Shown here one piece after another: positions 25,177 to 61,767 of a stretch of 64,000 nt of DNA. Position numbers and translations under genes: made by a program. The DNA comes from Eledone cirrhosa (taxonomy: Eukaryota). How positions within the stretch are numbered: position 1 is the first letter of the stretch; each line of letters begins with the position of its first letter. The notes under the pieces were generated by a model. It saw only the letters and a list, made by a program, of their open reading frames with translations, searched no databases and was not told the DNA's origin. The stretch covers positions 1 to 64,000 of the forward strand of contig CAXHJY010000322.1 of the NCBI GenBank assembly GCA_964016885.1, given 5' to 3'.

Positions 25177-28100
25177 TCTTCCACACTAACATAGCTACCT
25201 TCCACACTAACGTAGCTACCTTCCACACTAACGTAGCTACCTTCCACACTAACATAGCTATCTTCCACTCTAACATAGCTACCTTCCACTCTAACATAGC
25301 TACCTTCCACTCTAACATAGCTATCTTCCACTCTAACATAGCTACTTTCCACTCTAACATAGCTATCTTCCACACTAACATAGCTATCTTCCACTCTAAC
25401 ATAGCTACCTTCCACACTAACATAGCTACCTTCCACACTAACATAGCTACCTTCCACACTAACATAGCTACCTTCCACACTAACATAGCTACCTTCCACT
25501 CTAAGATAGCTACCTTCCACACTAACATAGCTATCTTCCACTCTAACATAGCTACCTTCCACACTAACATAGCTACCTTCCACACTAACATAGCTACCTT
25601 CCACACTAACATAGCTACCTTCCACACTAACATAGCTACCTTCCACTCTAAGATAGCTATCTTCCACACTAACATAGCTACCTTCCACACTAACATAGTT
25701 ACCTTCCAGACTAACATAGCTACCTTCCACTCTAACATAGCTACATTCCACACTAACATAGCTACCTTCCAGACTAACATAGCTACATTCCACTCTAAGA
25801 TAGCTACCTTCCACACTAACATAGCTACCTTCCACACTAACATAGCTACCTTACACTTTAACATAGCTACCTTCCACACTAACATAGCTATCTTCCACTC
25901 TAACATAGCTACCTTCCACTCTAACATAGCTACCTTCCACACTAACATAGCTACCTTCCACACTAACATAGCTACCTTCCACACTAACATAGCTACCTTC
26001 CACACTAACATAGCTATCTTCCAGACTAACATAGCTACCTTCCACACTAACATAGCTATCTTCCACACTAACATAGCTATCTTCCAGACTAACATAGCTA
26101 CCTTCCACACTAACATAGCTATCTTCCAGACTAACATAGCTACCTTCCAGACTAACATAGCTACCTTCCACTTTAACATAGCTACCTTCCACACTAACAT
26201 AGCTATCTTCCACTCTAACATAGCTACCTTCCACTCTAACATAGCTACCTTCCACACTAACATAGCGACCTTCCACACTAACATAGCTACCTTCCACACT
26301 AACATAGCTACCTTCCACTCTAACATAGCTACCTTCCACTCTAACATAGCTACCTTCCACTCTAACATAGTTACCTTCCACACTAACATAGCTACCTTCC
26401 ACAGTAACATAGTTACCTTCCACACTAACATACCTACCTTCCACACTAACATAGCTACCTTCCACACCAACATGGCTACCCTCCACACTAACATAGCTAC
26501 CTTCCACACTAACATAGCTACCTTCCACTCTAACATAGCTACCTTCCACACTAACATAGCTACCTTCCACACTAACATAGCTACCTTCCACACTAAAATA
26601 GCTACCTTCCACACTAACATAGCTACCTTCCAGTCTAACATAGCTACCTTCCACACTAACATAGTTACCTTCTATGTTAACATAGCTACCTTCCACACTA
26701 ACATAGCTACCTTCCACTCTAACATAGCTACCTTCCACTCTAACATAGCTACCTTCCACTCTAACATAGCTACCTTCCACTCTAACATAGCTACCTTCCA
26801 CTCTAACATAGCTACCTTCCACTCTAACATAGCTACCTTCCACACTAACATAGCTACCTTCCATGTTAATATAGCTACCTTCCACACTAACATAGCTACC
26901 TTCCACACTAACATAGCTACCTTCCACACTAACATAGCTACCTTCCACACTAACATAGCTACCTTCCACACTAACATAGCTACCTTCCACACTAACATAC
27001 CTACCTTCCTGTCTAACATAGCTACCTTCCACACTAACATAGCTACCTTCCACACTCACATAGCTACCTTCCACTCTAACATAGCTACCTTCCACACTAA
27101 CATAGCTACCTTCCACACTAACATAGCTACCTTCCACACTAACATAGCTACCTTCCACACTAACATACCTACCTTACACACTAACATAGCTACCTTCCAC
27201 ACTAACATAGCTACCTTCCACTCTAGCATGGCTACCTTCCACACTAACATAGCTACCTTCCACACTAAATAGCTACATTCCACATTAACATAGCTACCTT
27301 CCACAATTACAAAGCAACTTCCACACTAACATAGCTACCTTCCACTCTAGCATAGCTACCTTCCACACTAACATACCTACCTTCCACACTAACATAGCTA
27401 TCTTCCACACTAACATAGCTATCTTCCACTCTAACATAGCTACCTTCCACACTAACATAGCTACCTTCCACTCTAACATAGCTACCTTCCACACTAACAT
27501 AGCTACCTTCCACACTAACATAGCTACCTTCCACACTAACATAGCTACCTTCCACTCTAAGATAGCTACCTTCCACACTAACATAGCTATCTTCCACTCT
27601 AACATAGCTACCTTCCACTCTAACATAGCTACCTTCCACTCTAACATAGCTACCTTCCACTCTAACATAGCTATCTTCCACTCTAACATAGCTACCTTCC
27701 ACACTAACATAGCTACCTTCCACACTAACATAGCTACCTTCCACTCTAACATAGCTACCTTCCACACTAACATAGCTACCTTCCAGACTAACATAGCTAC
27801 CTTCCACTCTAAGATAGCTACCTTCCACACTAACATAGCTACCTTCCACACTAACATAGCTACCATGCACTTTAACATAGCTACCTTCCACACTAACATA
27901 GCTATCTTCCACTCTAACATAGCTACCTTCCACTCTAACATAGCTACCTTCCACACTAACATAGCTACCTTCCACACTAACATAGCTACCTTCCACACTA
28001 ACATAGCTACCTTCCACTCTAACATAGCTACCTTCCACACTAACATAGCTACCTTCCAGACTAACATAGCTACCTTCCACTCTAAGATAGCTACCTTCCA

Positions 28101-31100
28101 CACTAGCATAGCTACCTTCCACACTAACATAGCTACCTTCCACACTAACATAGCTACCTTCCACAATTACAATTACAAAGCAACTTCCACACTAACATAG
28201 CTACCTTCCACTCTAACATAGCTACCTTCCACACTAACATACCTACCTTCCACACTAACATAGCTACCTTCCACTCTAACATAGCTACCTTCCATAGTAA
28301 CATAGCTACCTTCCACACTAACATAGCTACCTTCCACTCTAACATAGCTACCTTCCACTCTAACATAGCTACCTTCCACACTAACATGGCTACCTTCCAC
28401 TCTAACATAGCTACCTTCCACACTAACATAGCTACCTTCCTCACTAACATAGCTACCTTCCTCACTAACATAGCTGCCTTCCACACTAACATAGCTACCT
28501 TCCACACTAACATAGCTACCTTCCACACTAACATAGCTACCTTCCACACTAACATAGCTACCTTCCATGCTAACATAGGTACCTTCCACACTAACATGGC
28601 TACCTTCCACACTAACATAGCAACCTTCAACACTAACATAGTTACCTTCCACACTAACATAGCTACCTTCCACACTAACATAGCTACCTTCCAGTCTAAC
28701 ATAGCTACCTTCCACACTAACATAGCTACCTTCCACACTAATATAGCTACCTTCCAGTCTAAAATAGCTACCTTCCACACTAACATAGCTACCTTCCACA
28801 CTAACATAGCTACCTTCCACACTAACATAGCTACCTTCCACTCTAGCATGGCTACCTTCCACACTAACATAGCTACCTTCCACACTAAATAGCTACATTC
28901 CACATTAACATAGCTACCTTCCACAATTACAAAGCAACTTCCACACTAAAATAGCTACCTTCCACTCTAGCATAGCTACCTTCCACACTAACATACCTAC
29001 CTTCCACACTAACATAGCTACCTTCCACTCTAACATAGCTACCTTCCACACTAACATAGCTACCTTCCACTCTAACATAGCTACCTTCCACTCTAACATA
29101 GCTACCTTCCACACTAACATAGCTACCTTCCACACTAACATAGTTACCTTCCACTCTAACATAGCTACCTTCCACACTAACATAGTTACCTTCCTTGTTA
29201 ACATAGCTACCTTCCACACTAACATAGCTACCTTCCACACTAACATAGCTACCTTCCACACTAACATACCTACCTTCCACACTAACATAGCTACCTTCCA
29301 CACTAACATAGTTACCTTCCACTCTAACATAGCTACCTTCCACACTAACATAGTTACCTTCCTTGTTAACATAGCTACCTTCCACACTAACATACCTACC
29401 TTCCACACTAACATAGCTACCTTCCACACTAACATAGTTACCTTCCATGTTAACATAGCTACCTTCCACACTAACATAGCTACCTTCCACACTAACATAG
29501 CTACCTTCCATGTTAACATAGCTACCTTCCTCACTAACATAGCTACCTTCCTTACTAACATAGCTACCTTCCTTACTAACATAGCTACCTTCCACACTAA
29601 CATAGCTACCTTCCACACTAACATAGCTACCTTCCACACTAACATAGCTACCTTCCACACCAACATAGCTACCTTCCACACTAACATAGCTACCTTCCAC
29701 ACTAACATGGCTACCTTCCACACTAACGTAGCTACCTTACACACTAACATAGCTACCTCCCAGACTAACATTGCTACCTTCCAGTCTAACATAGCTACCT
29801 TCCACACTAACATAGATACCTTCCACTCTAACATAGATACCTTCCACTCTAACATAGTTACCTTCCACACTAACATAGTTACCTTCCATGTTAACAGAGC
29901 TACTTTCCACACTAACATAGCTACCTTCCACACTAACATAGCTACCTTCCACACTAACATATCTACCTTCCACACTAACATATCTACCTTCCACACTAAC
30001 ATAGCTACCTTCCACACTAACATAGCTACCTTCCACTCTATCATAGCTACCTTCCACACTAAAATAGCTACCTTCCACACTAACATACCTACCTTCCACA
30101 CTAACATACCTACCTTCCACACTAACATAGCTACCTTCTACACTAACATGGCTACCTTCCACACTAACATGGCTACCTTCCACACTAACATGGCTACCTT
30201 CCACACTAACATGGCTACCTTCCACACTAACATAGCTACCTTCCACACTAACATAGCTACCTTCCATAATAACATAGCTACCTTCCACACTAACATAGCT
30301 ACCTTCCATAATAACATAGCTACCTTCCACACTAACATAGCTACCTTCCACACTAACATAGCTACCCTCCACACTAACATAGCTACCTTCCACACTAACA
30401 TAGCTACCTTCCACTCTAACATAGCTACCTTCCACTCTAACATGGCTACCTTCCACTCTAACGTAGCTACCTTCCACACTAACATAGCTACCTTCCACAT
30501 TAACATAGTTACCTTCCACACTAACATAGCTACCTTCCAATCTAACATAGCTACCTTCCACACTAACATGGCTACCCTCCACACTAACATAGCTACCTTC
30601 CAGTCTAACATAGCTACCTTCCAGACTAACATAGCTACCTTCCACACTAACATAGCTACCTTCCACACTAACATAGCTACCTTCCAGTCTAACATAGCTA
30701 CCTTCCAGTCTAACATAGCTACCTTCCACACTAACATAGCTACCTTCCACACTAACATAGCTACCTTCCACACTAACATAGCTACCTTCCACACTAACAT
30801 AGCTACCTTCCACACTAACATAACTATCTTCCACACTAACATAGCTACCCTCCACACTAACATAGCTACCTTCCAGTCTAACATAGCTACCTTCCACACT
30901 AACATAGCTACCTTCCACACTAACATAGCTACCTTCCAGTCTAACATAGCTACCTTCCACACTAACATGGCTACCCTCCACACTAACATAGCTACCTTCT
31001 TGTCTAACATAGCTACCTTCCACACTAACATAGCTACCTTCCACACTAACATAGCTACCTTCCAGTCTAACATAGCTACCTTCCAGTCTAACATAGCTAC

Positions 31101-34100
31101 CTTCCACACTAACATAGCTACCTTCCACACTAACATAGCTACCTTCCACACTAACATAGCTACCTTCCACACTAACATAGCTACCTTCCACACTAACATA
31201 ACTATCTTCCACACTAACATAGCTACCCTCCACACTAACATAGCTACCTTCCAGTCTAACATAGCTACCTTCCACACTAACATAGCTACCTTCCTGTCTA
31301 ACATAGCTACCTTCCACACTAACATAACTACCTTTCACACTAACATACCTACCTTCCACACTAACATACCTACCTTCCACACTAACATAGTTACCTTCCA
31401 CACTAACATAGTTACCTTCCACACTAACATAGCTACCTTCCACTCTATCATAGCTACCTTCCCAACTAACATAGCTGCCTTCCACACTAACATAGCTTCT
31501 TTCCACACTAACATTGCTGCCTTCCACACTAACATAGCTACCTTCCACACTAACATAGCTACCTTCCACTCTAACATAGTTACCTTCCACACTAACATAG
31601 CTACCTTCCACACTAACATAGCTACCTTCCACACTAACATAGCTACCTTCCAGTCTAACATAGCTACCTTCCACACTAACATGGCTACCCTCCACACTAA
31701 CATAGCTACCTTCTTGTCTAACATAGCTACCTTCCACACTAACATAGCTACCTTCCACACTAACATAGCTACCTTCCAGTCTAACATAGCTACCTTCCAG
31801 TCTAACATAGCTACCTTCCACACTAACATAGCTACCTTCCACACTAACATAGCTACCTTCCACACTAACATAGCTACCTTCCACACTAACATAGCTACCT
31901 TCCACACTAACATAACTATCTTCCACACTAACATAGCTACCCTCCACACTAACATAGCTACCTTCCAGTCTAACATAGCTACCTTCCACACTAACATAGC
32001 TACCTTCCTGTCTAACATAGCTACCTTCCACACTAACATAACTACCTTTCACACTAACATACCTACCTTCCACACTAACATACCTACCTTCCACACTAAC
32101 ATAGTTACCTTCCACACTAACATAGTTACCTTCCACACTAACATAGCTACCTTCCACTCTATCATAGCTACCTTCCCAACTAACATAGCTGCCTTCCACA
32201 CTAACATAGCTTCTTTCCACACTAACATTGCTGCCTTCCACACTAACATAGCTACCTTCCACACTAACATAGCTACCTTCCACTCTAACATAGTTACCTT
32301 CCACACTAACATAGCTACCTTCCACACTAACATAGCTACCTTCCACACTAACATAGCTACCTTCCACACTAACATAGCTACCATGCACTTTAACATAGCT
32401 ACCTTCCACACTAACATAGCTATCTTCCACTCTAACATAGCTACCTTCCACTCTAACATAGCTACCTTCCACACTAACATAGCTACCTTCCACACTAACA
32501 TAGCTACCTTCCACACTAACATAGCTACCTTCCACTCTAACATAGCTACCTTCCACACTAACATAGCTACCTTCCAGACTAACATAGCTACCTTCCACTC
32601 TAAGATAGCTACCTTCCACACTAGCATAGCTACCTTCCACACTAACATAGCTACCTTCCACACTAACATAGCTACCTTCCACAATTGCAATTACAAAGCA
32701 ACTTCCACACTAACATAGCTACCTTCCACTCTAACATAGCTACCTTCCACACTAACATACCTACCTTCCACACTAACATAGCTACCTTCCACTCTAACAT
32801 AGCTACCTTCCATAGTAACATAGCTACCTTCCACACTAACATAGCTACCTTCCACTCTAACATAGCTACCTTCCACTCTAACATAGCTACCTTCCACACT
32901 AACATGGCTACCTTCCACTCTAACATAGCTACCTTCCACACTAACATAGCTACCTTCCTCACTAACATAGCTACCTTCCTCACTAACATAGCTGCCTTCC
33001 ACACTAACATAGCTACCTTCCACACTAACATAGCTACCTTCCACACTAACATAGCTACCTTCCACACTAACATAGCTACCTTCCATGCTAACATAGGTAC
33101 CTTCCACACTAACATGGCTACCTTCCACACTAACATAGCAACCTTCAACACTAACATAGTTACCTTCCACACTAACATAGCTACCTTCCACACTAACATA
33201 GCTACCTTCCAGTCTAACATAGCTACCTTCCACACTAACATAGCTACCTTCCACACTAATATAGCTACCTTCCAGTCTAAAATAGCTACCTTCCACACTA
33301 ACATAGCTACCTTCCACACTAACATAGCTACCTTCCACACTAACATAGCTACCTTCCACTCTAGCATGGCTACCTTCCACACTAACATAGCTACCTTCCA
33401 CACTAAATAGCTACATTCCACATTAACATAGCTACCTTCCACAATTACAAAGCAACTTCCACACTAACATAGCTACCTTCCACTCTAGCATAGCTACCTT
33501 CCACACTAACATACCTACCTTCCACACTAACATAGCTACCTTCCACTCTAACATAGCTACCTTCCACACTAACATAGCTACCTTCCACTCTAACATAGCT
33601 ACCTTCCACACTAACATAGCTACCTTCCACACTAACATAGTTACCTTCCACACTAACATGGCTACCTTCCACTCTAACATAGCTACCTTCCACACTAACA
33701 TAGTTACCTTCCTTGTTAACATAGCTACCTTCCACACTAACATAGCTACCTTCCACACTAACATAGCTACCTTCCACACTAACATACCTACCTTCCACAC
33801 TAACATACCTACCTTCCACACTAACATAGCTACCTTCCACACTAACATAGTTACCTTCCATGTTAACATAGCTACCTTCCACACTAACATAGCTACCTTC
33901 CACACTAACATGGCTACCTTCCACACTAACATAGCTACCTTCTACACTAACATGGCTACCTTCCACACTAACATGGCTACCTTCCACACTAACATGGCTA
34001 CCTTCCACACTAACATGGCTACCTTCCACACTAACATAGCTACCTTCCACACTAACATAGCTACCTTCCATAATAACATAGCTACCTTCCACACTAACAT

Positions 34101-34760
34101 AGCTACCTTCCATACTAACATAGCTACCTTCCACACTAACATAGCTACCTTCCACACTAACATAGCTACCCTCCACACTAACATAGCTACCTTCCACACT
34201 AACATAGCTACCTTCCACTCTAACATAGCTACCTTCCACTCTAACATGGCTACCTTCCACTCTAACGTAGCTACCTTCCACACTAACATAGCTACCTTCC
34301 ACATTAACATAGTTACCTTCCACACTAACATAGCTACCTTCCAGTCTAACATAGCTACCTTCCACACTAACATGGCTACCCTCCACACTAACATAGCTAC
34401 CTTCCAGTCTAACATAGCTACCTTCCAGACTAACATAGCTACCTTCCACACTAACATAGCTACCTTCCACACTAACATAGCTACCTTCCAGTCTAACATA
34501 GCTACCTTCCAGTCTAACATAGCTACCTTCCCAACTAACATAGCTGCCTTCCACACTAACATAGCTTCTTTCCACACTAACATTGCTGCCTTCCACACTA
34601 ACATAGCTACCTTCCACACTAACATAGCTACCTTCCACTCTAACATAGTTACCTTCCACACTAACATAGCTACCTTCCACACTAACATAGCTACCTTCCA
34701 CACTAACATAGCTACCTTCCACACTAACATAGCTGCCTTCCACACTAACATAGTAACATA
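25177..34760. repeat. 21-bp minisatellite (CCACACTAACATAGCTACCTT), ~455 copies
   Basis: 21-nt period; accounts for all the VWKVAML, EGSYVSV and ATFHTNI ORFs. Confidence 0.99.
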
Positions 34761-37830: not shown

Positions 37831-38077
37831 TCATGAGAGTTAGCATGAATACCCTTGTACCAATGCTTTTACACATTGTTTGTACCACTTACCATGTCAT
37901 CTGGAAATGTAAGGCAAGGAGGTTTTGGTTTGAAGTTTATATGTTTTATATGTTTGAGTCGGTGAATTGATAAAGATGTTAGATTGTCAGGCAGAATACT
38001 TTACATTCTATTTAACCTTTCTCTCTCCTCACAACTGTAGTGTTGTTCCTATCTTAGAGTTTGTTATTTTACTTCAG

Positions 38078-38411
38078 GCTGTTCTTGAGAGCAAATGGCC
38101 AAGTGATACCAAGAATGGTCTACTGTTATGGAAGAAACTGCGTAATGTGATCACAGCTGTTGCACAATTGCGAAAGGGGTTGTTGCACCAACGAAGTAGC
38201 ACATCGTACTGCTCAAACTCTGAAAGTGATTACGACCAAGTCAGTCACACTAGCAATGACAGCTGTATAGATGAGGCTGCAGTCAGTGGGAGCACTGATG
38301 TTAACAGTGGTGCTACTGTGGGTAATAGAATTATTACCAAAACAGATCTTGTTTCTGATACGGTTGTGAATTGTTCTAATAAAGTAGCCAATGAGGAAAG
38401 AATGAGTACAG
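38078..38411 (+). CDS. DENND4: DENND4/CRAG exon (AVLESKWPS...WKKLRNVITAVAQLRK...ERMST-G)
   Basis: ttacttcag acceptor, G|gtaagt donor; continues 'NKAVLES.WPS..W.KLRNV'. Confidence 0.94.
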
Positions 38412-39142
38412 GTAAGTGACACACACATCCTTTTCTTCTCAGCTACTTTGGTTTCATTTTTGTTGTCTTTTATAATTTTATGTTACTTTTACTGAAAAGA
38501 AAACTTTTATTTTAATAGCTCCTACATTTTGCTTTCATATTTAGTTCAGGGCTGAAACACTTGCTCATCTGAGAGTTTCTTACCACTTTCATAGTTAAAA
38601 TCAACTATAAAATTATGTTTCATTTATTTTATATTTCTTAGTTTTGAAGATAATTTGCCTTTCATCCATTTAAGGTTGATAAAAAAAATAACTAGTAGAG
38701 GACTTTTCCTCCATCTCTTTCTCACTTCCTCTCTATCACTTCTTTCTCACTTCCTCTCTATCACTTCTTTCTCCTTATGGAAGAAATCAGGTATGTTCAT
38801 TTTAAACCTAACCTGCCCAAGAAATGCTGTGTCTTAACAACAGCCCTATAACCCTCACCAGGTTTTATGGGTCCATACATGCAATGAAGAGGATAAAATT
38901 CACAGAATTCCAGTCACATTTGTTCAATCTTAACTGGATCACTTCAGTGTGATGTTCAACTCAATATAATTTATGATAACATACAAGAAGACTGCAGTGA
39001 ATTAAGTGTATGCCTCACATTAACTCTTAACATTTTCTAATGCATTTGTGGCTGAGTAATAATATTATAATAATATTATTAATATTTGATTTGTTTGCAA
39101 GCATTCAGCTTCATAACGCTGTGTTCTAGATGACTATCATCC

Positions 39143-42152: not shown

Positions 42153-42341
42153 GGGGAGCATCAGATAGAGGTTATAGCTCTATGACACAGGAAGATGCCA
42201 AGACTCTATATGGAGCCCTTTCCTCAGCAGAACAGGCTCAGAATAAAATTAATAATTCCAGTAAGACAAAAGATTCCAAACACTCTCGTTCCAGTATACG
42301 CTGGAAGATCAGAAGTAAAAGTACAAATGAAGATTTATCAG
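42153..42341 (+). CDS. DENND4: DENND4/CRAG exon (G-GASDRGYSSMTQEDAK...RSKSTNEDLS-G)
   Basis: gtttcag acceptor, phase 1; 'GG.SD.GY.S' motif of DENND4; donor CAG|gtgaaa chosen for phase compatibility and is less certain. Confidence 0.82.
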
Positions 42342-42745
42342 GTGAAAGAGATTCAATTGATTTTCCAGAATATCTTCTGTTGCCTTCTACACTGACACTA
42401 ACTTCCAATCTATATCTTCATCACAATTATTCTCCATGTTCTCTAAACAACTCGTATTTATTTATGTTTTAGTTGTGGATTAAATATCTATCTATCTATT
42501 TATATTTATTTGTTGCTAAATATTTCCATAAGAAATACTAAAAATCATTTTTATTTATTTTATATTCTTTCAAAGAATTAGCTATATATATCTTCCCTTA
42601 TATATATATATGCAGAGGTTATATTTAATTTGTTGGGATTCAACAAGCTTAAACATTTTTATAACTGATATAAAGCACTCAACTGAAAAGTGGAGTAAAT
42701 ATACAATATATTAACAAATGGAAGCTATATTTATAAAACAATATA

Positions 42746-42811
42746 TATTTGATTATATATATTTCAAGGGCCACCAAGGCAAATTATGGTGCGCTTTCAT
42801 CAGATAAAATA
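42746..42811 (-). ncRNA. Minimal type I hammerhead ribozyme motif
   Basis: Minus: TATTTTAT-CTGATGA-aagcgcacca..tggtggccctt-GAAA-TATATA-TA-ATCAAATA. Confidence 0.75.
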
Positions 42812-42990
42812 CAATACAGATTTGTTTTATAAATAAATATTGACATACCCTGAAAAAAGATAGCCTTAACGGTTGGAGCTTCCGGGATAGCTTCCTGATA
42901 GCTTCCTGTGACTATCCAGGAAGCTCCAACCGTTAAGGTTGTCTTTTTTCAGGGTATGTCAATATTTATTTATAAAACAAATCTGTATTG

Positions 42991-43056
42991 TATTTTATCT
43001 GATGAAAGCACACCATAATTTGCCTTGGAGGCCCTTGAAATATGTATAATAAAATA
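42991..43056 (+). ncRNA. Minimal type I hammerhead ribozyme motif
   Basis: TATTTTAT(stem I)-CTGATGA-stem II-GAAA-TATGTA-TA-ATAAAATA(stem I'); 8-bp perfect stem I, near-palindromic stem III. Confidence 0.75.
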
Positions 43057-43202
43057 TATATGGTTTTATAAATATAGCTTCCATTTGTTAATATATTGTA
43101 TATATATATATATAGTAATAATAATAAATGCGAAGACTAAAATCCAAAGAGGGCTCGATAAGGATAAATATATATCAAGTATATATGAACCCTAGAGCAA
43201 AT

Positions 43203-43335
43203 ATTTATTAAAATAACAGATTAAAGTTTAAGCAAAGAATTGCTGCTTTCACCCTTAACGGGATCTTCTGAAGATCCCGTTAAGGGTGAAAGGAGCGATT
43301 CTTTGCTTAAACTTTATTCTGTTATTTTAATAAAT
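43203..43335. repeat. Fold-back module 2: 66-bp arms, 1-nt loop; CTGAAGA-ccc..ggg-GAAA at the apex
   Basis: Symmetric about 43269 (gggatcttc-t-gaagatccc). Confidence 0.9.
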
Positions 43336-43427
43336 AAATATATATATGAGGTGTGTCAGGGGTAACCACAGTTAAAAAAGGTACTCAATATATTGGTAGA
43401 GTATAGACATCTTTATTATATATAGAA

Positions 43428-43526
43428 ATGACTTCTACAGGACTAGGACTGTTTCATTCGTATGAAATTAAGACTATCCTCAATAATTTTGTACGAGTGA
43501 AAAAGTTCTAGTCCTGTAGAAGTCAT
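43428..43526. repeat. Fold-back module 3: ~43-bp arms containing a GAAACAGTC half-hammerhead
   Basis: atgacttctacaggactag... / ...ctagtcctgtagaagtcat followed by (TA)n. Confidence 0.85.
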
Positions 43527-43595
43527 ATATATATATATATATATATATATCACATAAGAAACGGAGGATCAGTGGTGCGACGAATTAGATTTATT

Positions 43596-43692
43596 AGACA
43601 TATTACAATTGTTTCTCTGGTGACCAGCTCGAGGCATGATCAATGCAATGATTGAACCTGACTCTGAAATCGCAAGTTCCTCAGATACGTCT
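43596..43692 (-). ncRNA. Type I hammerhead motif with long (62-nt) stem II region
   Basis: Minus: AGACGTAT-CTGAGGA-[62 nt]-GAAA-CAATTG-TA-ATATGTCT-aataaa; palindromic stem III, 8-bp stem I. Confidence 0.7.
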
Positions 43693-43755
43693 CGATTCTA
43701 CGAAGCAGAGTTTCCAAATGTCCAGTTACACCCACGGCCTTCACTCACCAGCTTT

Positions 43756-44590
43756 AGGCAGGTTGTACGATGCCTGCATACGAACAGCAATGCTGCATGG
43801 CAGTGAGACCTGGGCATTGTGTGCAGAGGATATACGCAGACTAGAGAGGAACGAAGCTTGCATGCTCCGCTGGATGTGTAACAGTAATATACGTGAACGG
43901 CAAAGCATAAACGAACTAAGGAATAAATTAGAGATAAGAGGGATCAGATGTTGTTTACTCGAGAGAAGGCTACGTTGGTATGGACACGTGATGCGCATGA
44001 AAGTCGATAGCTGTATAACAAAGTGCAGGGCAATAAAGATAGACGGTAGTCACGGAATAGGCAGACCTAGAAAAACCTGGGACGAGCTGATAAACTCCGA
44101 CATCACACACTTACACCTCTCCAAGACAATGTCACTGGACCGAGACCTTTGGCGGTACTCAGTAACAGAGAAGACCCGCCTTACCTAAATATATAGTAAA
44201 ACCTACTCCAGCCAGTAGGCATCTCTAACAAAATACACCCCGTCCCACCACCCCCACCCCCACCCGATCCACACCACCCCGTTCTATGTAAAGTTATGTT
44301 GGTGCCGCGCCATCGAGGCCGAAACAAATGAGATCGTGTAGGTGTCACGACAAAAAAACACACAGTCCACGCTGTAATGTGGCCGTGTAGGCAACACGGT
44401 AAAAACCTCCCAGACCCACACTGTAAATGTGGTTGGTGTTAGGAAGGGCATCCAACTGTAGAAAACCTGCCAGACAGTCCTATGCGAGCAAGACAATCAC
44501 TCTTGCCTCAAGTGGGACTACCCCCGTCCAAACCCATGCAAGCGTGGAACACGGACGTTAAACGTTGATGATGATGATGATGATGATGAT
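43756..44590 (+). mobile_element. 5'-truncated RTE-clade LINE (copy 1) with 3'UTR and (GAT)n tail
   Basis: GRLYDACIRTAMLHGSETW...RLRWYGHVMR...GRPRKTW; tail gatgatgat runs into (TA)n. Confidence 0.92.
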
Positions 44591-44612
44591 ATATACACAC
44601 ATATACACGTAC

Positions 44613-44646
<34 letters not shown>

Positions 44647-44657
44647 GTACACATATA

Positions 44658-44707
<50 letters not shown>

Positions 44708-44712
44708 TGTGT
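44591..44712. repeat. (TA)n/(CA)n microsatellite
   Basis: Direct inspection. Confidence 0.9.
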
Positions 44713-44947
44713 GTTGATGCCCTAAGGACAGACACTGGTCTGTTGGAGACGCAGGACATGGCAGTGATGATGAGGGGCAGAGACCGCTGGAGAGAACTCA
44801 TCCATGGATCTCGTGAATTTTATCTGCCTAGATAAATAGATATATATATATATAACAAAGAGGGTGTGGTAAGATACCAGGTGGACTATAACGCACCAGA
44901 GTACTCAATACTTTGGGTAGTAGAGTGGGTAATAGGAATATAGTCAA

Positions 44948-45040
44948 GACCCCTACGGCTGAGCTCCAGCTGTTTCGACAGCTAGATCCGAACTGTTCAG
45001 ATCTAGCTGTCGAAACGGCCAGAGCTCAGCTGTCGGGGTC
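44948..45040. repeat. Fold-back module 4: 46-bp arms, 1-nt loop, CGAAAC motif
   Basis: Symmetric about 44994 (gtttcgacagctagatc.gaac-t-gttc.gatctagctgtcgaaac). Confidence 0.88.
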
Positions 45041-45064
45041 CTGAATCTTTTCATATATATATAC

Positions 45065-45106
<42 letters not shown>

Positions 45107-45128
45107 TGAAACAGTAAGCAAGTTACGA

Positions 45129-45237
45129 AAATTAGAAATAGAAGCTTTCACCGTATTTTACTAAAGAAATTTTAGCTAAAATCAGGCTAAAATTTCTTTA
45201 GTAAAAAAAATATGGCGAATGCTTCTATTTCTAATTT
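45129..45237. repeat. Fold-back module 5: ~50-bp arms, GAAAGCTTC motif on the minus strand
   Basis: aattagaaatagaagc..actaaagaaattttagc / gctaaaatttctttagt..gcttctatttctaatt. Confidence 0.88.
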
Positions 45238-45272
45238 ACATATATATAAAAACAATTACAACAGTGACATAA

Positions 45273-45322
45273 ACAGGTACTCAAGTTTCGTTGGGTTCTG
45301 GGCCCCAATTTCTTCAGCCTGT
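45273..45322 (-). ncRNA. Minimal type I hammerhead ribozyme motif
   Basis: Minus: ACAGG-CTGAAGA-aaTTGGGgcccagaaCCCAAc-GAAA-CTTGAG-TA-CCTGT. Confidence 0.8.
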
Positions 45323-45571
45323 CATGAGAAAAATGAAAAAAGTTTTGTTGGGTTCTGGGCCCCCATTTTTTCAGCCTGTCATGAGAAAAATGAAAAACAA
45401 AGATGGCCGCCTATGGTTGATTGTGCTTTACCTTGATTGTGCTTTCCCTTGATTGTGCTTTCCCTTGATTGTGCTTTACTTTGATTGTGCTTTCCCTATG
45501 GGGATATAACAAAAGAATGTGAAAGCACAATCAACCATAGGCAGCCATCTTTGTTTTTCATTTTTCTCATG

Positions 45572-45621
45572 ACAGGCTGAAGAAATTGAGGCCCAGAACC
45601 CAACGAAACTTGAGTACCTGT
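45572..45621 (+). ncRNA. Minimal type I hammerhead ribozyme motif (predicted cut after GUA at 45616)
   Basis: ACAGG-CTGAAGA-aaTTGaGgcccagaaCCCAAc-GAAA-CTTGAG-TA-CCTGT. Confidence 0.78.
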
Positions 45622-46129
45622 TTATGTCATTGTTGTAATTATTTATACTAAACTCATCTTATGGACTGAGTGCTCTTACTCTTGGATATTTCCACTTAAC
45701 TTTTACTTCAGTATATATAAGCAGGAATGAAGTCAAGGTTGCACCATAAATATATTTTATTAACATATGACATTGTTTCAATATCTATCAGCTCAGCGTA
45801 TGATCATAATGATTTGGACGTGGCTATATATATATAAAACAAAGAGGGTTTGGTAAGATACCAGGTGGACCATAATACATATATACATATATATATATAT
45901 ATAGCAGATACCATCAAAATCGGGCAGTCACAAAGCACTCACTGATGTGAAATGTTAATACATTTTCATCCAGAGTAAAGACAAAGTTAAGAAAGTGTGA
46001 CACCAAGAATAAAACCGGGTGTATGTATGTGGCCATAGTTAATACAACAACAACAATAAATAGAAACCTGCCACAAACCACCCTTGGTTCTATGAAAGTG
46101 TTAAAGGGTTCCTATATAAAATCTTTACT

Positions 46130-48268
46130 ATTTTTTAAATTCCATGTTTCTAACACACATTGGCATACCTACAAAGTCAGAAAACAGCACAGCCCCCATG
46201 ACTTTCAGAAACTTTTCTTTTTCACGCTCAGAGTTGCTGAAGCATGGAACAAACTACCTGCATCAGTTGTTAGCTGTTGAGACACTGCATCCTTTAAAAC
46301 CTCCATGGAACAAACTACCTGCATCAGTTGTTAGCTGTCGAGACACTGCATCCTTTAAAACCTCCATGGAACAAACTACCTGCATCAGTTGTTAGCTGTC
46401 GAGACACTGCATCCTTTAAAACCTACTTGGAACAAACTACCTGCATCAGTTGTTAGCTGTTGAGACATTACATCGTTTAAAACCTCCATTGAACAAACTA
46501 CCTGCATCAGTTCTTAGCTGACTAGACACTGCATCCTTTAAAACCTCCATGGAACAAACTACCAGCATCAGTTATTAGCTGTTGAGACACTGCATCCTTT
46601 AAAACCCCCATGGAACAAACTCCCTGCATCAGTTGTTAGCTGCTGAGACACTGCATCCTTTAAAACCCCCATGGAACAAACTACCTGCATCAGTTGTTAG
46701 CTGTCGAGACACTGCATCCTTTAAAACCTCCAAGAAAAAAACTACCTGCATCCTTTAAAACCTCCAAGGAACAAACTACCTGCATCAGCTGTTAGCTGTG
46801 AAGACACTGCATCCTTTAAAACCTCCATGGAACAAACTCCATGCATCAGCTGTTAGCTGTTGAGACACTGCATCCTTTAAAGCCGCCATGGAACAAACTA
46901 CCTGCATCAGTTGTTAGCTGCTGAGACACTGCATCCTTTAAAACCTCCATGGAACAAACTACCTGCATCAGTTCTTAGCTGTCGAGACACTACATCCTTT
47001 AAAACCTCCAGGGAACAAACTACCTGCATCCTTTAAAACCTCCATGGAACAAACTACCTGCATCAGTTGTTAGCTGTCGAGACACTGCATCCTTTAAAAC
47101 TTCCATGGAACAAACTACCTGCATCAGTTCTTAGCTGACGAGACATTGCATCCTTTAAAACCTCCAGGGAACAAACTACCTGCATCAGTTCTTAGCTGTC
47201 GGGACACTGCATCCTTTAAAACCTTCATGGAACAAACTACCTGCATCAGTTGTTAGCTGTCGAGACACTGCATCCTTTAAAACCTCCATGGAACAAACTA
47301 CCTGCATCAGCTGTTAGCTGTTGAGATACTGCATCCTTTAAAACCTCCATAGAACAAACTACCTGCATCAGTTGTTAGCTGTGAAGACACTGCATCCTTT
47401 AAAACCTCCATGGAACAAACTCCATGCATCAGCTGTTAGCTGTTGAGACACTGCATCCTTTAAAGCCTCCATGGAACAAACTACCTGCATCAGTTGTTAG
47501 CTGCTGAGACACTGCATCCTTTAAAACCTCCATGGAACAAACTACCTGCATCAGTTGTTAGCTGTCGAGACACTGCATCCTTTAAAACTTCCATGGAACA
47601 AACTACCTGCATTAGTTCTTAGCTGACGAGACATTGCATCCTTTAAAACCTCCAGGGAACAAACTACCTGCATCAGTTCTTAGCTGTCGGGACACTGCAT
47701 CCTTTAAAACCTTCATGGAACAAACTACCTGCATCAGTTGTTAGCTGTCAGGACACTGCATCCTTTAAAACCTCCATGGAACAAACTACCTGCATCAGTT
47801 CTTAGCTGACGAGACACTGCATCCTTTAAAACCTCCATGGAACAAACTACCTTCATCACTTATTAGCTGTTGAGACACTGCATCCTTTAAAACCTCCATG
47901 GAACAAACTACCTTCATCACTTATTAGCTGTTGAGACACTGCATCCTTTAAAACCTCCATGGAACAAACTACCTTCATCACTTATTAGCTGTTGAGACAC
48001 TGCATCCTTTAAAACCTCCATGGAACAAACTACCTTCATCACTTATTAGCTGTTGAGACACTGCATCCTTTGAAGCCTCCATGCTTCCTGAAATTAGCCA
48101 ACACTACACCTAATATTAGCCCTCCATACACACACACACATATCATGACTCATACACTGTTCACTTTCCTGACATTTGTACATTATTCTATGTACTATAC
48201 ATACACCTTTGATGAGTTGGAGTGCACCTGAGCACTGTACACAATAATTTCAATATTATTATTATAAT
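46130..48268 (+). mobile_element. CR1/L2-group LINE 3' end, interrupted by expansion of its own 61-bp segment
   Basis: HTYKVRKQHS..FFTLRVAEAWNKLPASVVSCRDTASFKTSM|LPEISQHYT*, then a 3'UTR ending in (ATT)n; 'RV..WN.LP..VV....FK' is the CR1/L2 ORF2 terminus. Confidence 0.75.
46243..48083. repeat. 61-bp tandem repeat, ~30 copies
   Basis: GGAACAAACTACCTGCATCAGTTGTTAGCTGTCGAGACACTGCATCCTTTAAAACCTCCAT. Confidence 0.97.
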
Positions 48269-48445: not shown

Positions 48446-49696
48446 TTATAATTTTAAAATCTTTTGTTATTTTATAATCACCATTTTCACAGTAAAGGCG
48501 TTACCTCACATAATATGCCACATAACATTTACATTACTCTATATATACTATTGTATTTTCATGGTAAAGGCTTTACCTCACATAATACCTGACATAACAT
48601 TTACATTACTCTATATATACTATTGTATTTTCACAGTAAAGGCTTTACCTCACATAATATCCCACATAACATTTACATTACTCTATATATACTATTGTAT
48701 TTTCACAGTAAAGGCTTTACCTCACATAATACCTGATATAACATTTATATTACTCTATATATACTATTGTATTTTCACAGTAAAGGCTTTACCTCACATA
48801 ATATGCCACATAACATTTACATTACTCTATATATACTATTGTATTTTCATGGTAAAGGCTTTACCTCACATAATATCTCACATAACATTTACATTACTCT
48901 ATATATACTATTGTATTTTCACAGTAAAGGCTTTACCTCACATAATATCTCGCATAACATTTACATTACTCTATATATACTATTGTATTTTCACAGTAAA
49001 GGCTTTACCTCACATATCTCACATAACATTTACATTACTCTATATATACTATTGTATTTTCACAGTAAAGGCCTTACCTCACATAATATCTCACATAACA
49101 TTCACATTACTCTATATATACTATTGTATTTTCACAGTAAAGGCTTTACCTCACATAATATCCCACATAACATTTACATTACTCTATATATACTATTGTA
49201 TTTTCACAGTAAAGGCTTTACCTCACATAATATCTCACATAACATTTACATTACTCTATATATACTATTGTATTTTCACAGTAAAGGCTTTACCTCACAT
49301 AATACCTCACATAACATTTACATTACTCTATATATACTATTGTATTTTCACATTAAAGGCTTTACCTCACATAATATCCCACATAACATTTACATTACTC
49401 TATATATACTATTGTATTTTCACAGTAAAGGCTTTACCTCACATAATATCTCACATAACATTTACATTACTCTATATATACTATTGTATTTTCACAGTAA
49501 AGGCTTTACCTCACATAATACCTCACATAACATTTACATTACTCTATATATACTATTGTATTTTCACATTAAAGGCTTTACCTCACATAATATCCCACAT
49601 AATATTTACACTACTCTATATATACTATTGTATTTTCACAGTAAAGGCTTTACCCTACATAATATCTCGCATAACATTTACATTACTCTATATATA

Positions 49697-52017: not shown

Positions 52018-54133
52018 ACTATTGTATTTTCACAGTAAACGCTTTACCTCACATAATATCTCACATAACATTTACTTTACTCTATATATACTATTGTATT
52101 TTCACAGTAAAGGCTTTACCTCACATAATACTTACTTTACTCTATATATACTATTGTATTTTCACAGTAAAGGTTTTACCTCACATAATACTTACTTTAC
52201 TCTATATATACTATTGTATTTTCACAGTAAAGGTTTTACCTCACATAACATGTACATTACTCTACATATACTATTGTATTTTCACAGTAAAGGCTTTACC
52301 TCACATAATATCTCACATAACATTTACATTACTCTATATATACTATTATATTTTCACAGCACACGTTTTACCTCACATAATACCTGACATAACATTTACA
52401 TTACTCTATAAATACTATTGTATTTTCACAGTAAAGGCTTTACCTCACATAACATTTACATTACTCTTTAGATATACTATTGTATTTTCACAGTAAAGGC
52501 TTTACCTCACATAATACTTACTTTACTCTATACATACTATTGTATTTTCACAGTAAAGGCTTTGCCTTACACCATATCTCACATAACATTTACATTACTC
52601 TATATATGCTATTGTATTTTCACAGTAAAGGCTTTACCTCCCATATCTCACATAACATTTACATTACTCTATATATGCTATTGTATTTTCACAGTAACGA
52701 CTTTACCTCACATAATATCTCACATAACATTTACATTACTCTATATATACTATTGTATTTTCACAGTAAAGGCTTTACCTCACATAATATCCCACATAAC
52801 ATTTACATTACTCTATATATACTATTGTATTTTCACAGTAAAGACTTTACCCCACATAATATTTACATTACTCTTTATAGATACTATTGTATTTTCACAG
52901 TAAAGGCTTTACCTCACATAATATCTCACATAATATTTACATTACTCTATATATACTATTTTATTTTCACAGTAAAGACTTTACCTCCCATATCTCACAT
53001 AACATTTACATTACTCTATATATGCTATTGTATTTTCGCAGTAAAGACTTTACCTCACATAATATCTCACATAACATTTACATTACTCTATATATATTAT
53101 TGTATTTTCACAGTAAAGTCTTTACCTCACATAATATCTTACATAACATTTACATTACTCTATATATACTATTGTATTTTCACAGTAAATGCTTTACCCC
53201 ACATAACATTTACATTACTCTTTATATATACTATTGTATTTTCACAGTAAAGGCGTTCCCTCACATAATATCTCACATAATATTTACATTACTCTATATA
53301 TACTATTGTATTTTCACTGTAAAGGCTTTACCTCACATAATATCTCACATAACATTTACATTACTCTCTATATACTATTGTATTTTCACAGTAAAGGCTT
53401 TACCTCACATAATACCTGACAACATTTACATTACTCTATATATACTATTGTATTTTCACAGTAAAGGCTTTACCTCACATAACATTTACATTACTCTATA
53501 TATACTATTATATTTTCACAGTAAAGGCTTTACTTCACATAATATCTCACACAACCTTTACATTACTCTATATATACTATTGTATTTTCACAGTAAAGGC
53601 TTTACCTCACATATCTCACATAACATTTACATTACTCTATATATACTATTGTATTTTCACAGTAAAGGCTTTACCTCACATAATATCTCACATTACTCTA
53701 TATATACTATGGTATTTTCACAGTAAAGGCTTTACCTTGCATAATATCTCGCACAACATTTACATTACTCTATATATACTATTGTATTTTCACAGTAAAG
53801 GCTTTAGCTTACATAATATCTCATATAACATTTACATTACTCTATATATACTATGGTATTTTCACAGTAAAGACTTTACCTCACATAATATCTCACATAA
53901 CATTTACATTACTCTATATATACTATTATATTTTCACAGTAAAGGCTTTAGCTTACATGATTATCTCACATAATATCGAATCTATGAGATTTTGATATTA
54001 TCTATTTTGAGAACAATACCTTAACTTAAGTATGAGCAGCCAGTTTGAACAGGAAGAGATGAGAGAATTCTGGCTGGATACTGCCGGTTTAAATGCTAAT
54101 GGCTTAATATTATTATTAAATTAATATTAATAA

Positions 54134-56449: not shown

Positions 56450-56602
56450 GTGTGGGAAATTGTTCCAGCAACCCTGATAATTCTCATTCTAATGGTAACT
56501 TTGCTGTGTCACAGTTCCGAACTAGAATTGGCAGCATTATGAGAAAATCAGCAAAAAATGTCACCAATGCTGAAAGTCTGGAAACCTTAAAATCAAACTT
56601 TT
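56450..56602 (+). CDS. DENND4: DENND4/CRAG exon (G-VGNCSS...FRTRIGSIMRKS...LKSNF)
   Basis: Long T tract + tag acceptor, T|gtaaat donor; phase 1/1 fits both neighbours; low sequence conservation. Confidence 0.75.
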
Positions 56603-59892: not shown

Positions 59893-61767
59893 CCTCTTGG
59901 GTTACCTCCGTATCATGAAGGTTTCTCCTCTTGGGTTACCTCCGTATCATGAAGGTTTCTCCTCTTGGGTTACCTCCGTATCATGAAGGTTTCTCCTCTT
60001 GGGTTACCTCCATATCATGAAGGTTTCTCCTCTTGGGTTACCTCCGTATCATGAAGGTTGCTCCTCTTGGGTTACCTCCGTATCATGAAGGTTTCTCCTC
60101 TTGGGTTACCTCCGTATCATGAAGGTTTCTCCTCTTGGGTTACCTCCATATCATGAAGGTTGCTCCTCTTGGGTTACCTCTGTATCATGAAGGTTTCTCC
60201 TCTTGGGTTACCTCCGTATCATGAAGGTTTCTCCTCTTGGGTTACCTCCGTATCATGAAGGTTTCTCCTCTTGGGTTACCTCCGTATCATGAAGGTTTCT
60301 CCTCTTGGGTTACCTCCGTATCATGAAGGTTTCTCCTCTTGGGTTACCTCCATATCATGAAGGTTGCTCCTCTTGGGTTACCTCCGTATTATGAAGGTTT
60401 CTCCTCTTGGGTTACCTCCGTATCATGAAGGTTTCTCCTCTTGGGTTACCTCCGTATCATGAAGGTTTCTCCTCTTGGGTTACCTCCATATCATGAAGGT
60501 TTCTCCTCTTGGGTTACCTCCATATCATGAAGGTTGCTCCTCTTGGGTTACCTCCATATCATGAAGGTTGCTCCTCTTGGGTTACCTCCATATCATGAAG
60601 GTTTCTCCTCTTGGGTTACCTCCATATCATGAAGGTTTCTCCTCTTGGGTTACCTCCATATCATGAAGGTTGCTCCTCTTGGGTTACCTCCGTATCATGA
60701 AGGTTTCTCCTCTTGGGTTACCTCCGTATCATGAAGGTTTCTCCTCTTGGGTTACCTCCGTATCATGAAGGTTTCTCCTCTTGGGTTACCTCCGTATCAT
60801 GAAGGTTTCTCCTCTTGGGTTACCTCCGTATCATGAAGGTTTCTCCTCTTGGGTTACCTCCATATCATGAAGGTTTCTCCTCTTGGGTTACCTCCGTATC
60901 ATGAAGGTTGCTCCTCTTGGGTTACCTCCGTATCATGAAGGTTTCTCCTCTTGGGTTACCTCCGTATCATGAAGGTTTCTCCTCTTGGGTTACCTCCATA
61001 TCATGAAGGTTGCTCCTCTTGGGTTACCTCCATATCATGAAGGTTTCTCCTCTTGGGTTACCTCCATATCATGAAGGTTGCTCCTCTTGGGTTACCTCCA
61101 TATCATGAAGGTTGCTCCTCTTGGGTTACCTCCATATCATGAAGGTTGCTCCTCTTGGGTTACCTCCGTATCATGAAGGTTGCTCCTCTTGGGTTACCTC
61201 CATATCATGAAGGTTTCTCCTCTTGGGTTACCTCCGTATCATGAAGGTTGCTCCTCTTGGGTTACCTCCGTATCATGAAGGTTTCTCCTCTTGGGTTACC
61301 TCCGTATCATGAAGGTTGCTCCTCTTGGGTTACCTCCATATCATGAAGGTTTCTCCTCTTGGGTTACCTCCATATCATGAAGGTTGCTCCTCTTGGGTTA
61401 CCTCCGTATCATGAAGGTTGCTCCTCTTGGGTTACCTCCGTATCATGAAGGTTTCTCCTCTTGGGTTACCTCCGTATCATGAAGGTTTCTCCTCTTGGGT
61501 TACCTCCGTATCATGAAGGTTGCTCCTCTTGGGTTACCTCCGTATCATGAAGGTTTCTCCTCTTGGGTTACCTCCGTATCATGAAGGTTTCTCCTCTTGG
61601 GTTACCTCCATATCATGAAGGTTTCTCCTCTTGGGTTACCTCCGTATCATGAAGGTTGCTCCTCTTGGGTTACCTCCGTATCATGAAGGTTTCTCCTCTT
61701 GGGTTACCTCCGTATCATGAAGGTTTCTCCTCTTGGGTTACCTCCATATCATGAAGGTTGCTCCTCT
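59893..61767. repeat. 34-bp minisatellite, ~55 copies (CCTCTTGGGTTACCTCCRTATCATGAAGGTTKCT)
   Basis: 34-nt period; two recurrently variable positions. Confidence 0.98.

Follow-up and report, generated by a model that had tools for sequence, protein, structure and literature searches.

Hammerhead-bearing fold-backs in a DENND4 intron of Eledone cirrhosa read as truncated head-to-head ends of Penelope-like elements

Within about 3 kb of an intron of a C-myc promoter-binding protein/DENND4 gene in Eledone cirrhosa, inverted-repeat modules and hammerhead ribozyme (HHR) motifs are strung along (TA)n tracts. The question raised by this locus is whether such a cluster represents small self-standing ribozyme elements or the remains of larger ones. 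The window analyzed, i.e. the whole stretch of 64,000 nt, corresponds to positions 1 to 64,000 of the forward strand of contig CAXHJY010000322.1 (assembly GCA_964016885.1). A first-pass annotation, made from the letters alone, had proposed tiny stand-alone retroelements lacking an open reading frame (ORF), with viroid-like, rod-shaped RNAs. Based on the evidence below, the cluster is very probably a pile of 5'-truncated ends of several families of Penelope-like elements (PLEs). Each insertion into (TA)n was likely a separate event, in which a long end and a short end were placed head-to-head.

All six modules described in the first-pass annotation were recovered as fold-backs A, B, C, D, E, and G, with arms that are unrelated between modules and mostly (TA)n between them. 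The annotated extent, 42690..45900, contains the fold-backs, but module A begins at 42612, its long arm having a 92-nt tail. All six pair a long with a short end (6/6). In fold-back A (42696-43106), 195-nt arms are 95% complementary; the long arm (42612..42890, minus strand), a PLE 3' end assigned below to the Hydra clade, carries a complete HHR (core 42803) and ends at (TA)n, and the short arm without a tail (42912..43098, plus strand), head-to-head with it, also carries a complete HHR (core 42999). Fold-back B (43202-43336; arms 96% complementary) consists of a PLE 3' end cut within the HHR core, with a 90-nt tail (43115..43269, minus), and a short arm (43270..43333, plus). Fold-back C (43417-43537; 87%) joins the 3' half of an HHR plus tail (43348..43477, minus) to a short arm in which the HHR core is decayed (43478..43526, plus). 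It is followed by the lone 3' end of a further family, J (43551..43715, minus). In fold-back D (44932-45056; 82%), the long arm (44855..44994, minus) holds an HHR 3' half cut in the long stem II (family core TTGATAA, of the U3-A8 type) and an 80-nt tail, opposite a short arm at 44995..45052 (plus); a second D fragment at 45836..45878 (minus) is tail only. Fold-back G (45108-45237) was read from the sequence and has a predicted fold of -57 kcal/mol; its long arm (45108..45192, minus) is the 3' part of a tRNA-headed, non-coding 260-nt tandem repeat, without the tRNA head in this copy, and its short arm lies at 45193..45237 (plus). In fold-back E (45247-45647; 94-96%), the short arm (45254..45500, minus) includes, besides a complete HHR (core 45317), five tandem repeats of 16 bp and a decayed duplicate of 57 bp; the long arm (45521..45711, plus) has a complete HHR (core 45577) and a tail that stops at (TA)n.

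A structural descriptor detected exactly five complete type I HHRs between 42583 and 45900, with cores at 42803(-), 42999(+), 43684(-), 45317(-), and 45577(+), compared to a mean of 0.004 and a maximum of 1 in 500 dinucleotide shuffles, so the annotated number is borne out. Four of these sit in fold-backs A and E; the fifth, that of family J with a 62-nt stem II, lies outside any fold-back. The half-motifs noted earlier in the remaining hairpins were traced in B, C, and D to family HHRs of which the fold-back junction has left the 3' half. At 43268, the junction of fold-back B makes a CTGAAGA that was rejected as a genuine core; its stem I has only 2 bp, and it is a by-product of folding back inside the CAGAAGA family core. 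Rfam returned no hammerhead family in the window even at E<=10, and none in 10 further loci; its 62 window matches were all miRNA-type hairpin noise under the gathering score.

Every module proved to be a dispersed repeat, as the first-pass annotation had supposed, with first-look candidate copies numbering 1245 for A, 1418 for E, 6129 for D, 1244 for the upstream part of B, 1529 for C, and 331 for G. An upstream walk from A reached a GIY-YIG endonuclease end. Of 30 loci picked by protein alone, 25 had module A on the strand of the endonuclease and 769-1455 nt downstream of it, and an ORF was present upstream of B in 7/30 B loci. Pseudo-long terminal repeats (pLTRs) enclose the ORF on both sides at L206 (743-codon open frame) and L210 for A, and at L217 and L214 for B (L numbers denote loci); these four loci, together with the long-plus-short pairs described below, show the partial tandem of pLTRs, the inverted 5'-truncated copy, and the one-sided tail of PLEs. 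Modules A and B are the 3' ends (pLTR and tail) of protein-coding PLEs with a full ORF for reverse transcriptase (RT) and GIY-YIG endonuclease, and the suspected link to Penelope-like pLTR hammerheads thus stands for both; at the motif level, an HHR is present in the pLTR.

Pfam gave no RT or GIY-YIG match on seven ORF pieces, and the ORF assignment rests on motifs and on 24 homologues, 7 with PF26215 and 1 with PF00078. The motifs comprise RWRA, DKT, YRDD, CxCx5C, a single Cys between IVY and Y[IV]G, CxxC..E, and CKH. The Hydra clade has been defined by an RWK-type motif, DKT, a CxCx5C linker, the lack of CCHH, and CxxC and CxH around E and N (PMC8557442; this and the other publications are cited for those parts that were available to us). 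Since the ORF motifs match this definition, A and B are placed in the Hydra clade, by motif match rather than by an RT tree. The motif set is complete for A in L206/L207, whereas for B pieces of it were found in L214, L216, and L217; CxH was not seen in the translated B copy. A table in PMC8557442 lists Hydra-1_Obim, a family of Octopus bimaculoides with (TA)n preference. For the other families, one ORF-linked copy each was found for C (L255 of 37 loci; the tail runs into the ORF start), D (L328 of 70 loci; a continuous decayed ORF 1 kb upstream), and E (L046 of 23 loci; an endonuclease remnant ~400 nt upstream, E 3e-7). Families C, D, E, and J are likely Hydra-clade PLE ends as well.

Some further arrangements of these elements were encountered. 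At L205 (G000:C4:316578000-316587999), a ~4.0-kb unit in which an inverted family A pLTR is joined to the endonuclease end occurs in at least 3-4 tandem copies. A family A ORF at L021:5007-7720 is broken by a SINE-like repeat (SINE, short interspersed element) and a transposase-like element, which we take to be piggyBac. A further PLE family, H (L220, L103, L268), has a short 3' untranslated region (UTR), its own HHR, and an RCTC..GAGY tail hairpin, and ends at (TA)n.

The geometry of the ends bears on how the parents may give rise to fold-backs. Each family has two fixed end points 66-92 nt apart, both adjoining (TA)n, which corresponds to tail lengths of 66-92 nt (52 in G). A TA tract terminates 82/95 arms of A (of the 82, 42 short and 39 long), 89/106 of B (of the 89, 43 short and 39 long), and 29/33 of E (of the 29, 15 short and 14 long); the D arms were 119 short, 136 long, and 26 other. 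Short ends also stand alone, about as often as long ends. Among 173 fold-backs, 144 were classifiable, and 127 of the 144 consist of one long and one short end; many C arms were left unclassed because the reference tail of that family is divergent. When every locus fetched for the family in question was dropped, 33/36 fold-backs were long plus short (p 1e-7 versus one half). The inverted truncated ends and the (TA)n targeting claimed in the first-pass annotation are genuine. Both were already known, inverted truncated copies with a one-sided tail having been published for PLEs (PMC8557442; PMC3846280; PMC8969392), and the long-plus-short pairing rule is among the fresher points. The fold-back centers are widely variable in A, B, and E and clustered in C, D, and G, the clustering in D and G being partly due to query choice. 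Centers that differ from copy to copy would be expected of truncation products and not of a fixed replicating unit; secondary copying of some fixed-center palindromes, as in family D, is possible.

A hairpin of the form RCTC..GAGY begins 6-24 nt after 8/9 mapped PLE ends, compared to 2.1% of random positions and 0/3080 3'-UTR positions. Its arms covary (ACTC/GAGT and GCTC/GAGC), and in tandem copies of A and B the motif found after the short end recurs beyond the long end. By eye, the exact hairpin was also found near the ends of 3/6 Hydra consensi in the supplement of PMC8557442, all of them coral and sea-cucumber elements (Hydra-2_Amil, Hydra-1_Ajap twice, Hydra-2_Ajap); of the others, two are partial, and Hydra-1_Obim is not clear. 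The word "hairpin" has 0 occurrences in the available text of that paper. The hairpin is likely a docking signal that marks where reverse transcription starts.

The proposed insertion mechanism would begin with the PLE endonuclease nicking a (TA)n tract on both strands. From the 3'-OH ends so formed, reverse transcription of a read-through RNA would then start at two internal sites. Both sites open with TAT/ATAT microhomology and lie upstream of the RCTC..GAGY hairpin, at which the protein would likely dock. Both cDNAs would stop early and be joined via short palindromes or microhomology. The (TA)n left flanking each insertion would likely keep the spot a target, so that families may accumulate, and module G would be a likely non-coding passenger using a PLE-type enzyme. 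For the Poseidon element PAc, it was reported in vitro that both target strands are cut and extended, that two internal start sites define the tail, and that ribozyme cleavage is dispensable (Frangieh et al., 2024, PMC11167929). The long-plus-short rule accords with both sites being used, on opposite strands, in a single event.

The same parents could have yielded fold-backs in another way, if a single cDNA (or an antisense template) snapped back on itself and served as its own template; the position of the short end would then be determined by endonuclease resolution. Junction palindromes were so interpreted in PMC3846280, and the perfect palindromic centers in D and B fit such a course. However, short ends occur alone about as frequently as long ends, both ends of A and B are followed by the same motif, and two start sites were measured in vitro for the Poseidon element. 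We regard this route as unlikely, albeit deserving serious attention.

Several observations weigh against a pile of separately inserted PLE ends, each primed from both strands of a (TA)n tract. The self-priming model (PMC3846280) predicts head-to-head junctions too, and on this point the two are not separable here. The D centers are strongly clustered, ~138 nt from the long end, in part since 24 loci came from a palindromic query, and 29/173 fold-backs are unclassed. The RCTC..GAGY pattern was drawn up after these ends had been seen, its exact form is present in only three of the six published consensi, and no such hairpin was found after the long end of C or after either G end. The ORF links of C, D, and E each rest on a single decayed copy, and no ORF link was found for family J in the loci examined, a genome-wide search for J not having been made. 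Apparent D-ORF links at L160/L220, L170/L221, L103, and L291 were rejected and ascribed to other families, as the ORF either terminates in an HHR and (TA)n of its own or is set apart from D by intervening insertions. Finally, the enrichment of neighboring pieces described below is just 1.1-fold at family C loci.

A different view is that the modules are self-standing, non-autonomous retrozymes or viroid-like rod RNAs that self-excise, circularize, and re-insert. Five intact HHRs, high copy numbers, and one center common to many D copies speak for it. As to the cores, the copies that span them have CTGATGA in 47/53 for A and 13/22 for C, CTGAAGA in 21/22 for E, and CAGAAGA in 44/46 for B. The D core TTGATAA was first noticed in two unselected loci and has 175 exact matches; the share of D copies with this core is biased, most of the loci tallied having been chosen by it. 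A pattern search for a canonical CTGANGA core in D gave 12 places and no true upstream core; the U3-A8 variant (TTGATAA type) has been described in Schistosoma (PMC4209133). Stem III is self-complementary in 91/94 HHRs of family A and its sister families, even though TATGTA/TATATA is changed to TGCGCA in one sister family. This may be read in favor of retrozymes, yet selection acting on the parent elements would account for the stem covariation just as well, and self-complementarity kept despite a sequence switch points to such selection.

The arrangement of the motifs argues against retrozymes. The window contains no direct-repeat HHR units, and in each fold-back there is at most one HHR per strand, which would preclude release of a monomer or circle. 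In the head-to-head pairs, the sense HHR always lies in the downstream arm, facing its own complement. In predicted folds, stem I has a pairing probability of 0.0 for both plus strand HHRs within the full A and E hairpins, whereas the first four stem I pairs of the isolated E HHR reach 0.83-0.94 (isolated A, <0.1). The sense-strand HHRs are thus predicted to be locked inside the hairpins, i.e. to be passengers. In addition, centers vary and A and B run on into RT and GIY-YIG ORFs; only G is non-coding, and no complete HHR was found in it. Neither the stand-alone elements nor the viroid-like RNAs of the first-pass annotation are supported here, and we consider this explanation very unlikely. 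That the hairpins are miniature inverted-repeat transposable elements or terminal inverted repeats of DNA transposons, or assembly fold-back artifacts, is hardly credible, since the arms, although TA-flanked and inverted like those of Tc1/mariner-type elements, are asymmetric with a one-sided tail, variable in length and center, without symmetric fixed termini, and, for A and B, continuous with ORFs that already contradict this origin, and since they differ by 4-18%, unlike a chimeric read.

To place the cluster in its genomic context, 40 evenly spaced 10-kb stretches (L331-L370; 400 kb) were sampled. They contained 44 insertions of these families (~110 per Mb), 17 with both orientations, and 31 descriptor HHRs compared to 1 in the shuffled sample. 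Scaled up, with a wide sampling error, this amounts to ~3x10^5 pieces and ~2x10^5 HHR motifs genome-wide. The local pile-up, termed a landing pad in the first-pass annotation, is real: the densest of 120 sampled 3.3-kb tiles held three insertions, and the cluster holds eight. Pieces of other families near an anchored element numbered 108, versus 51 expected (2.1-fold, range 1.1-3.1). The cluster is a local maximum of a pattern found throughout the genome, which is consistent with a shared (TA)n target. Runs of (TA)4 or more make up 5.8% of the sampled bases.

Unrelated pieces lie within the same stack. These are the end of an ORF resembling a long interspersed element (LINE), with an open 156-codon frame seen on translation and shared with locus L032 (43716..44187, plus); a dispersed repeat ending in (TGA)n with matches in many loci, presumably SINE-like (44330..44590, plus); and a dispersed repeat that appears to be a LINE-like 3' end adjoining (TA)n, judging from translation and matches in L031, L033, L039, and L044 (44709..44832, plus).

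Module G differs from the remaining families. In its relatives, a non-coding unit of 260 nt is arranged in tandem and headed by a tRNA-like part, which was detected by ARAGORN in 7/10 loci and by Rfam, over the gathering score, in 4/5 G loci. The features of a tRNA-derived SINE, namely a tRNA-like head with A and B boxes, a non-coding body, and dispersed copies, are present, and the head is likely a Pol III promoter. By inspection, neither strand of G carries a complete HHR. G forms fold-backs at (TA)n, 20/24 of them long plus short (2/2 in the unbiased set), and the sampled 400 kb contained two insertions. The most fitting interpretation is that G is SINE-like and travels as the passenger of a PLE; no partner element was found, a genome-wide search for one not having been made, and among the titles listed by a literature search no case of a SINE moved by a PLE turned up. 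Multimers of G might be cut by tRNA-processing enzymes in place of a ribozyme. Its relatives occur as 2-2.5 tandem units, often head-to-head (L280, L272, L270, L274, L290), and in the tRNA-like part the anticodon is variable and a long extension of the acceptor stem is predicted.

Taken together, these findings allow a joint reading, which we offer tentatively and which may well not hold in all its parts. A conserved RCTC..GAGY hairpin, duplicated in Hydra-clade RNA, would position two RT start sites, and one event priming from both (TA)n strands would give the long-plus-short fold-back. In octopods, hairpin insertions on the order of 10^5 would have resulted, along with 2x10^5 hammerhead motifs, and some of the families would be fixed for non-canonical cores. 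The tandem SINE with a tRNA head would use the PLE machinery without a hammerhead.

The cluster was confirmed to be intronic, as plus strand exons of the DENND4 gene, identified by protein comparison, bracket it at 38075..38413 and 56476..56601; one host exon showed 88% identity to the Octopus sinensis and O. vulgaris proteins. An open stretch at 42153-42260 (+), with AG...GT borders and phase 1 at both ends as in the flanking host exons, lacks a counterpart in both Octopus proteins compared and is likely a cassette exon. Introns of this gene also contain very long satellite arrays, at 1-23997, 25178-34753, 46243-48083, 48483-49696, 52240-53973, and 59893-61767, with units of 53, 21, 61, 72, 72, and 34 bp, respectively. 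RNA editing is prevalent in cephalopods; intronic fold-backs would give long double-stranded RNA, possibly relevant to it.

Compared with known systems, the families resemble most closely the Hydra clade including Hydra-1_Obim (PMC8557442), with which they share RW(K/R), DKT, CxCx5C, the lack of CCHH, and CxxC plus CxH, an HHR close to the 3' end that often has an additional U following A9 and preceding GAA, (TA)n targets, and the inverted 5'-truncated copy with a tail. They differ in that four motif words of families A-D are absent from the available supplement, the 3' UTRs are longer (~1-1.3 kb in A, B, and D), and the tails measure 66-92 nt instead of the 30-40 bp cited there; by eye, neither CAGAAGA (B) nor TTGATAA (D) appears among the cores of its HHR table as available. 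This was the only relevant paper retrieved for hammerhead and octopus, and neither "ribozyme" nor "hammerhead" occurs (0 matches) in the available text of a repeat annotation of O. vulgaris from 2026 (PMC13282606).

The minimal HHRs ascribed to truncated PLEs by Cervera and de la Pena (2014, PMC4209133) likewise come as opposite-strand pairs 100-700 bp apart, with palindromic stem III and the U3-A8 core variant, and have low in vitro activity. In families B, C, and D, by contrast, a stem III of 3-5 bp is closed by a loop of 7-9 nt, and stem II regions reach 50-62 nt in J and D. The start sites of PAc (PMC11167929) lie at a non-homologous AC-rich stem-loop within the ORF, whereas both ends described here precede the start of the ORF, begin with TA-like microhomology, and are followed by the RCTC..GAGY hairpin. 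Non-LTR retrozymes (PMC7229834; bioRxiv 10.64898/2026.07.22.740005) have type I HHRs, as do the modules in the window; these are head-to-head and not tandem, no direct tandem HHR units of 150-450 nt were found, A and B have protein-coding masters, and G lacks a detected complete HHR. G, whose short tandem unit is non-coding and has a head that is likely of the Pol III type, is comparable to the promoter-plus-HHR SINE-like repeats of Schistosoma (PMC6765202).

With 31 motifs and 17 fold-backs per 400 kb, the HHR load of this octopus is on the scale of the axolotl figure, for which up to 120,000 HHRs are named in a section title. The cluster itself is ordinary transposon debris with no sign of a viroid-like system, and it is mostly of a known kind, namely new families of Hydra-clade PLEs present as truncated head-to-head ends. 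It provides a natural data set on how PLEs form inverted ends and tails, together with a precise in vitro prediction. Less ordinary in comparison with the systems above are the pairing of long with short ends, the hairpin as a candidate docking signal, the cores that deviate from the canonical form, and module G as a passenger from a tRNA-headed family.

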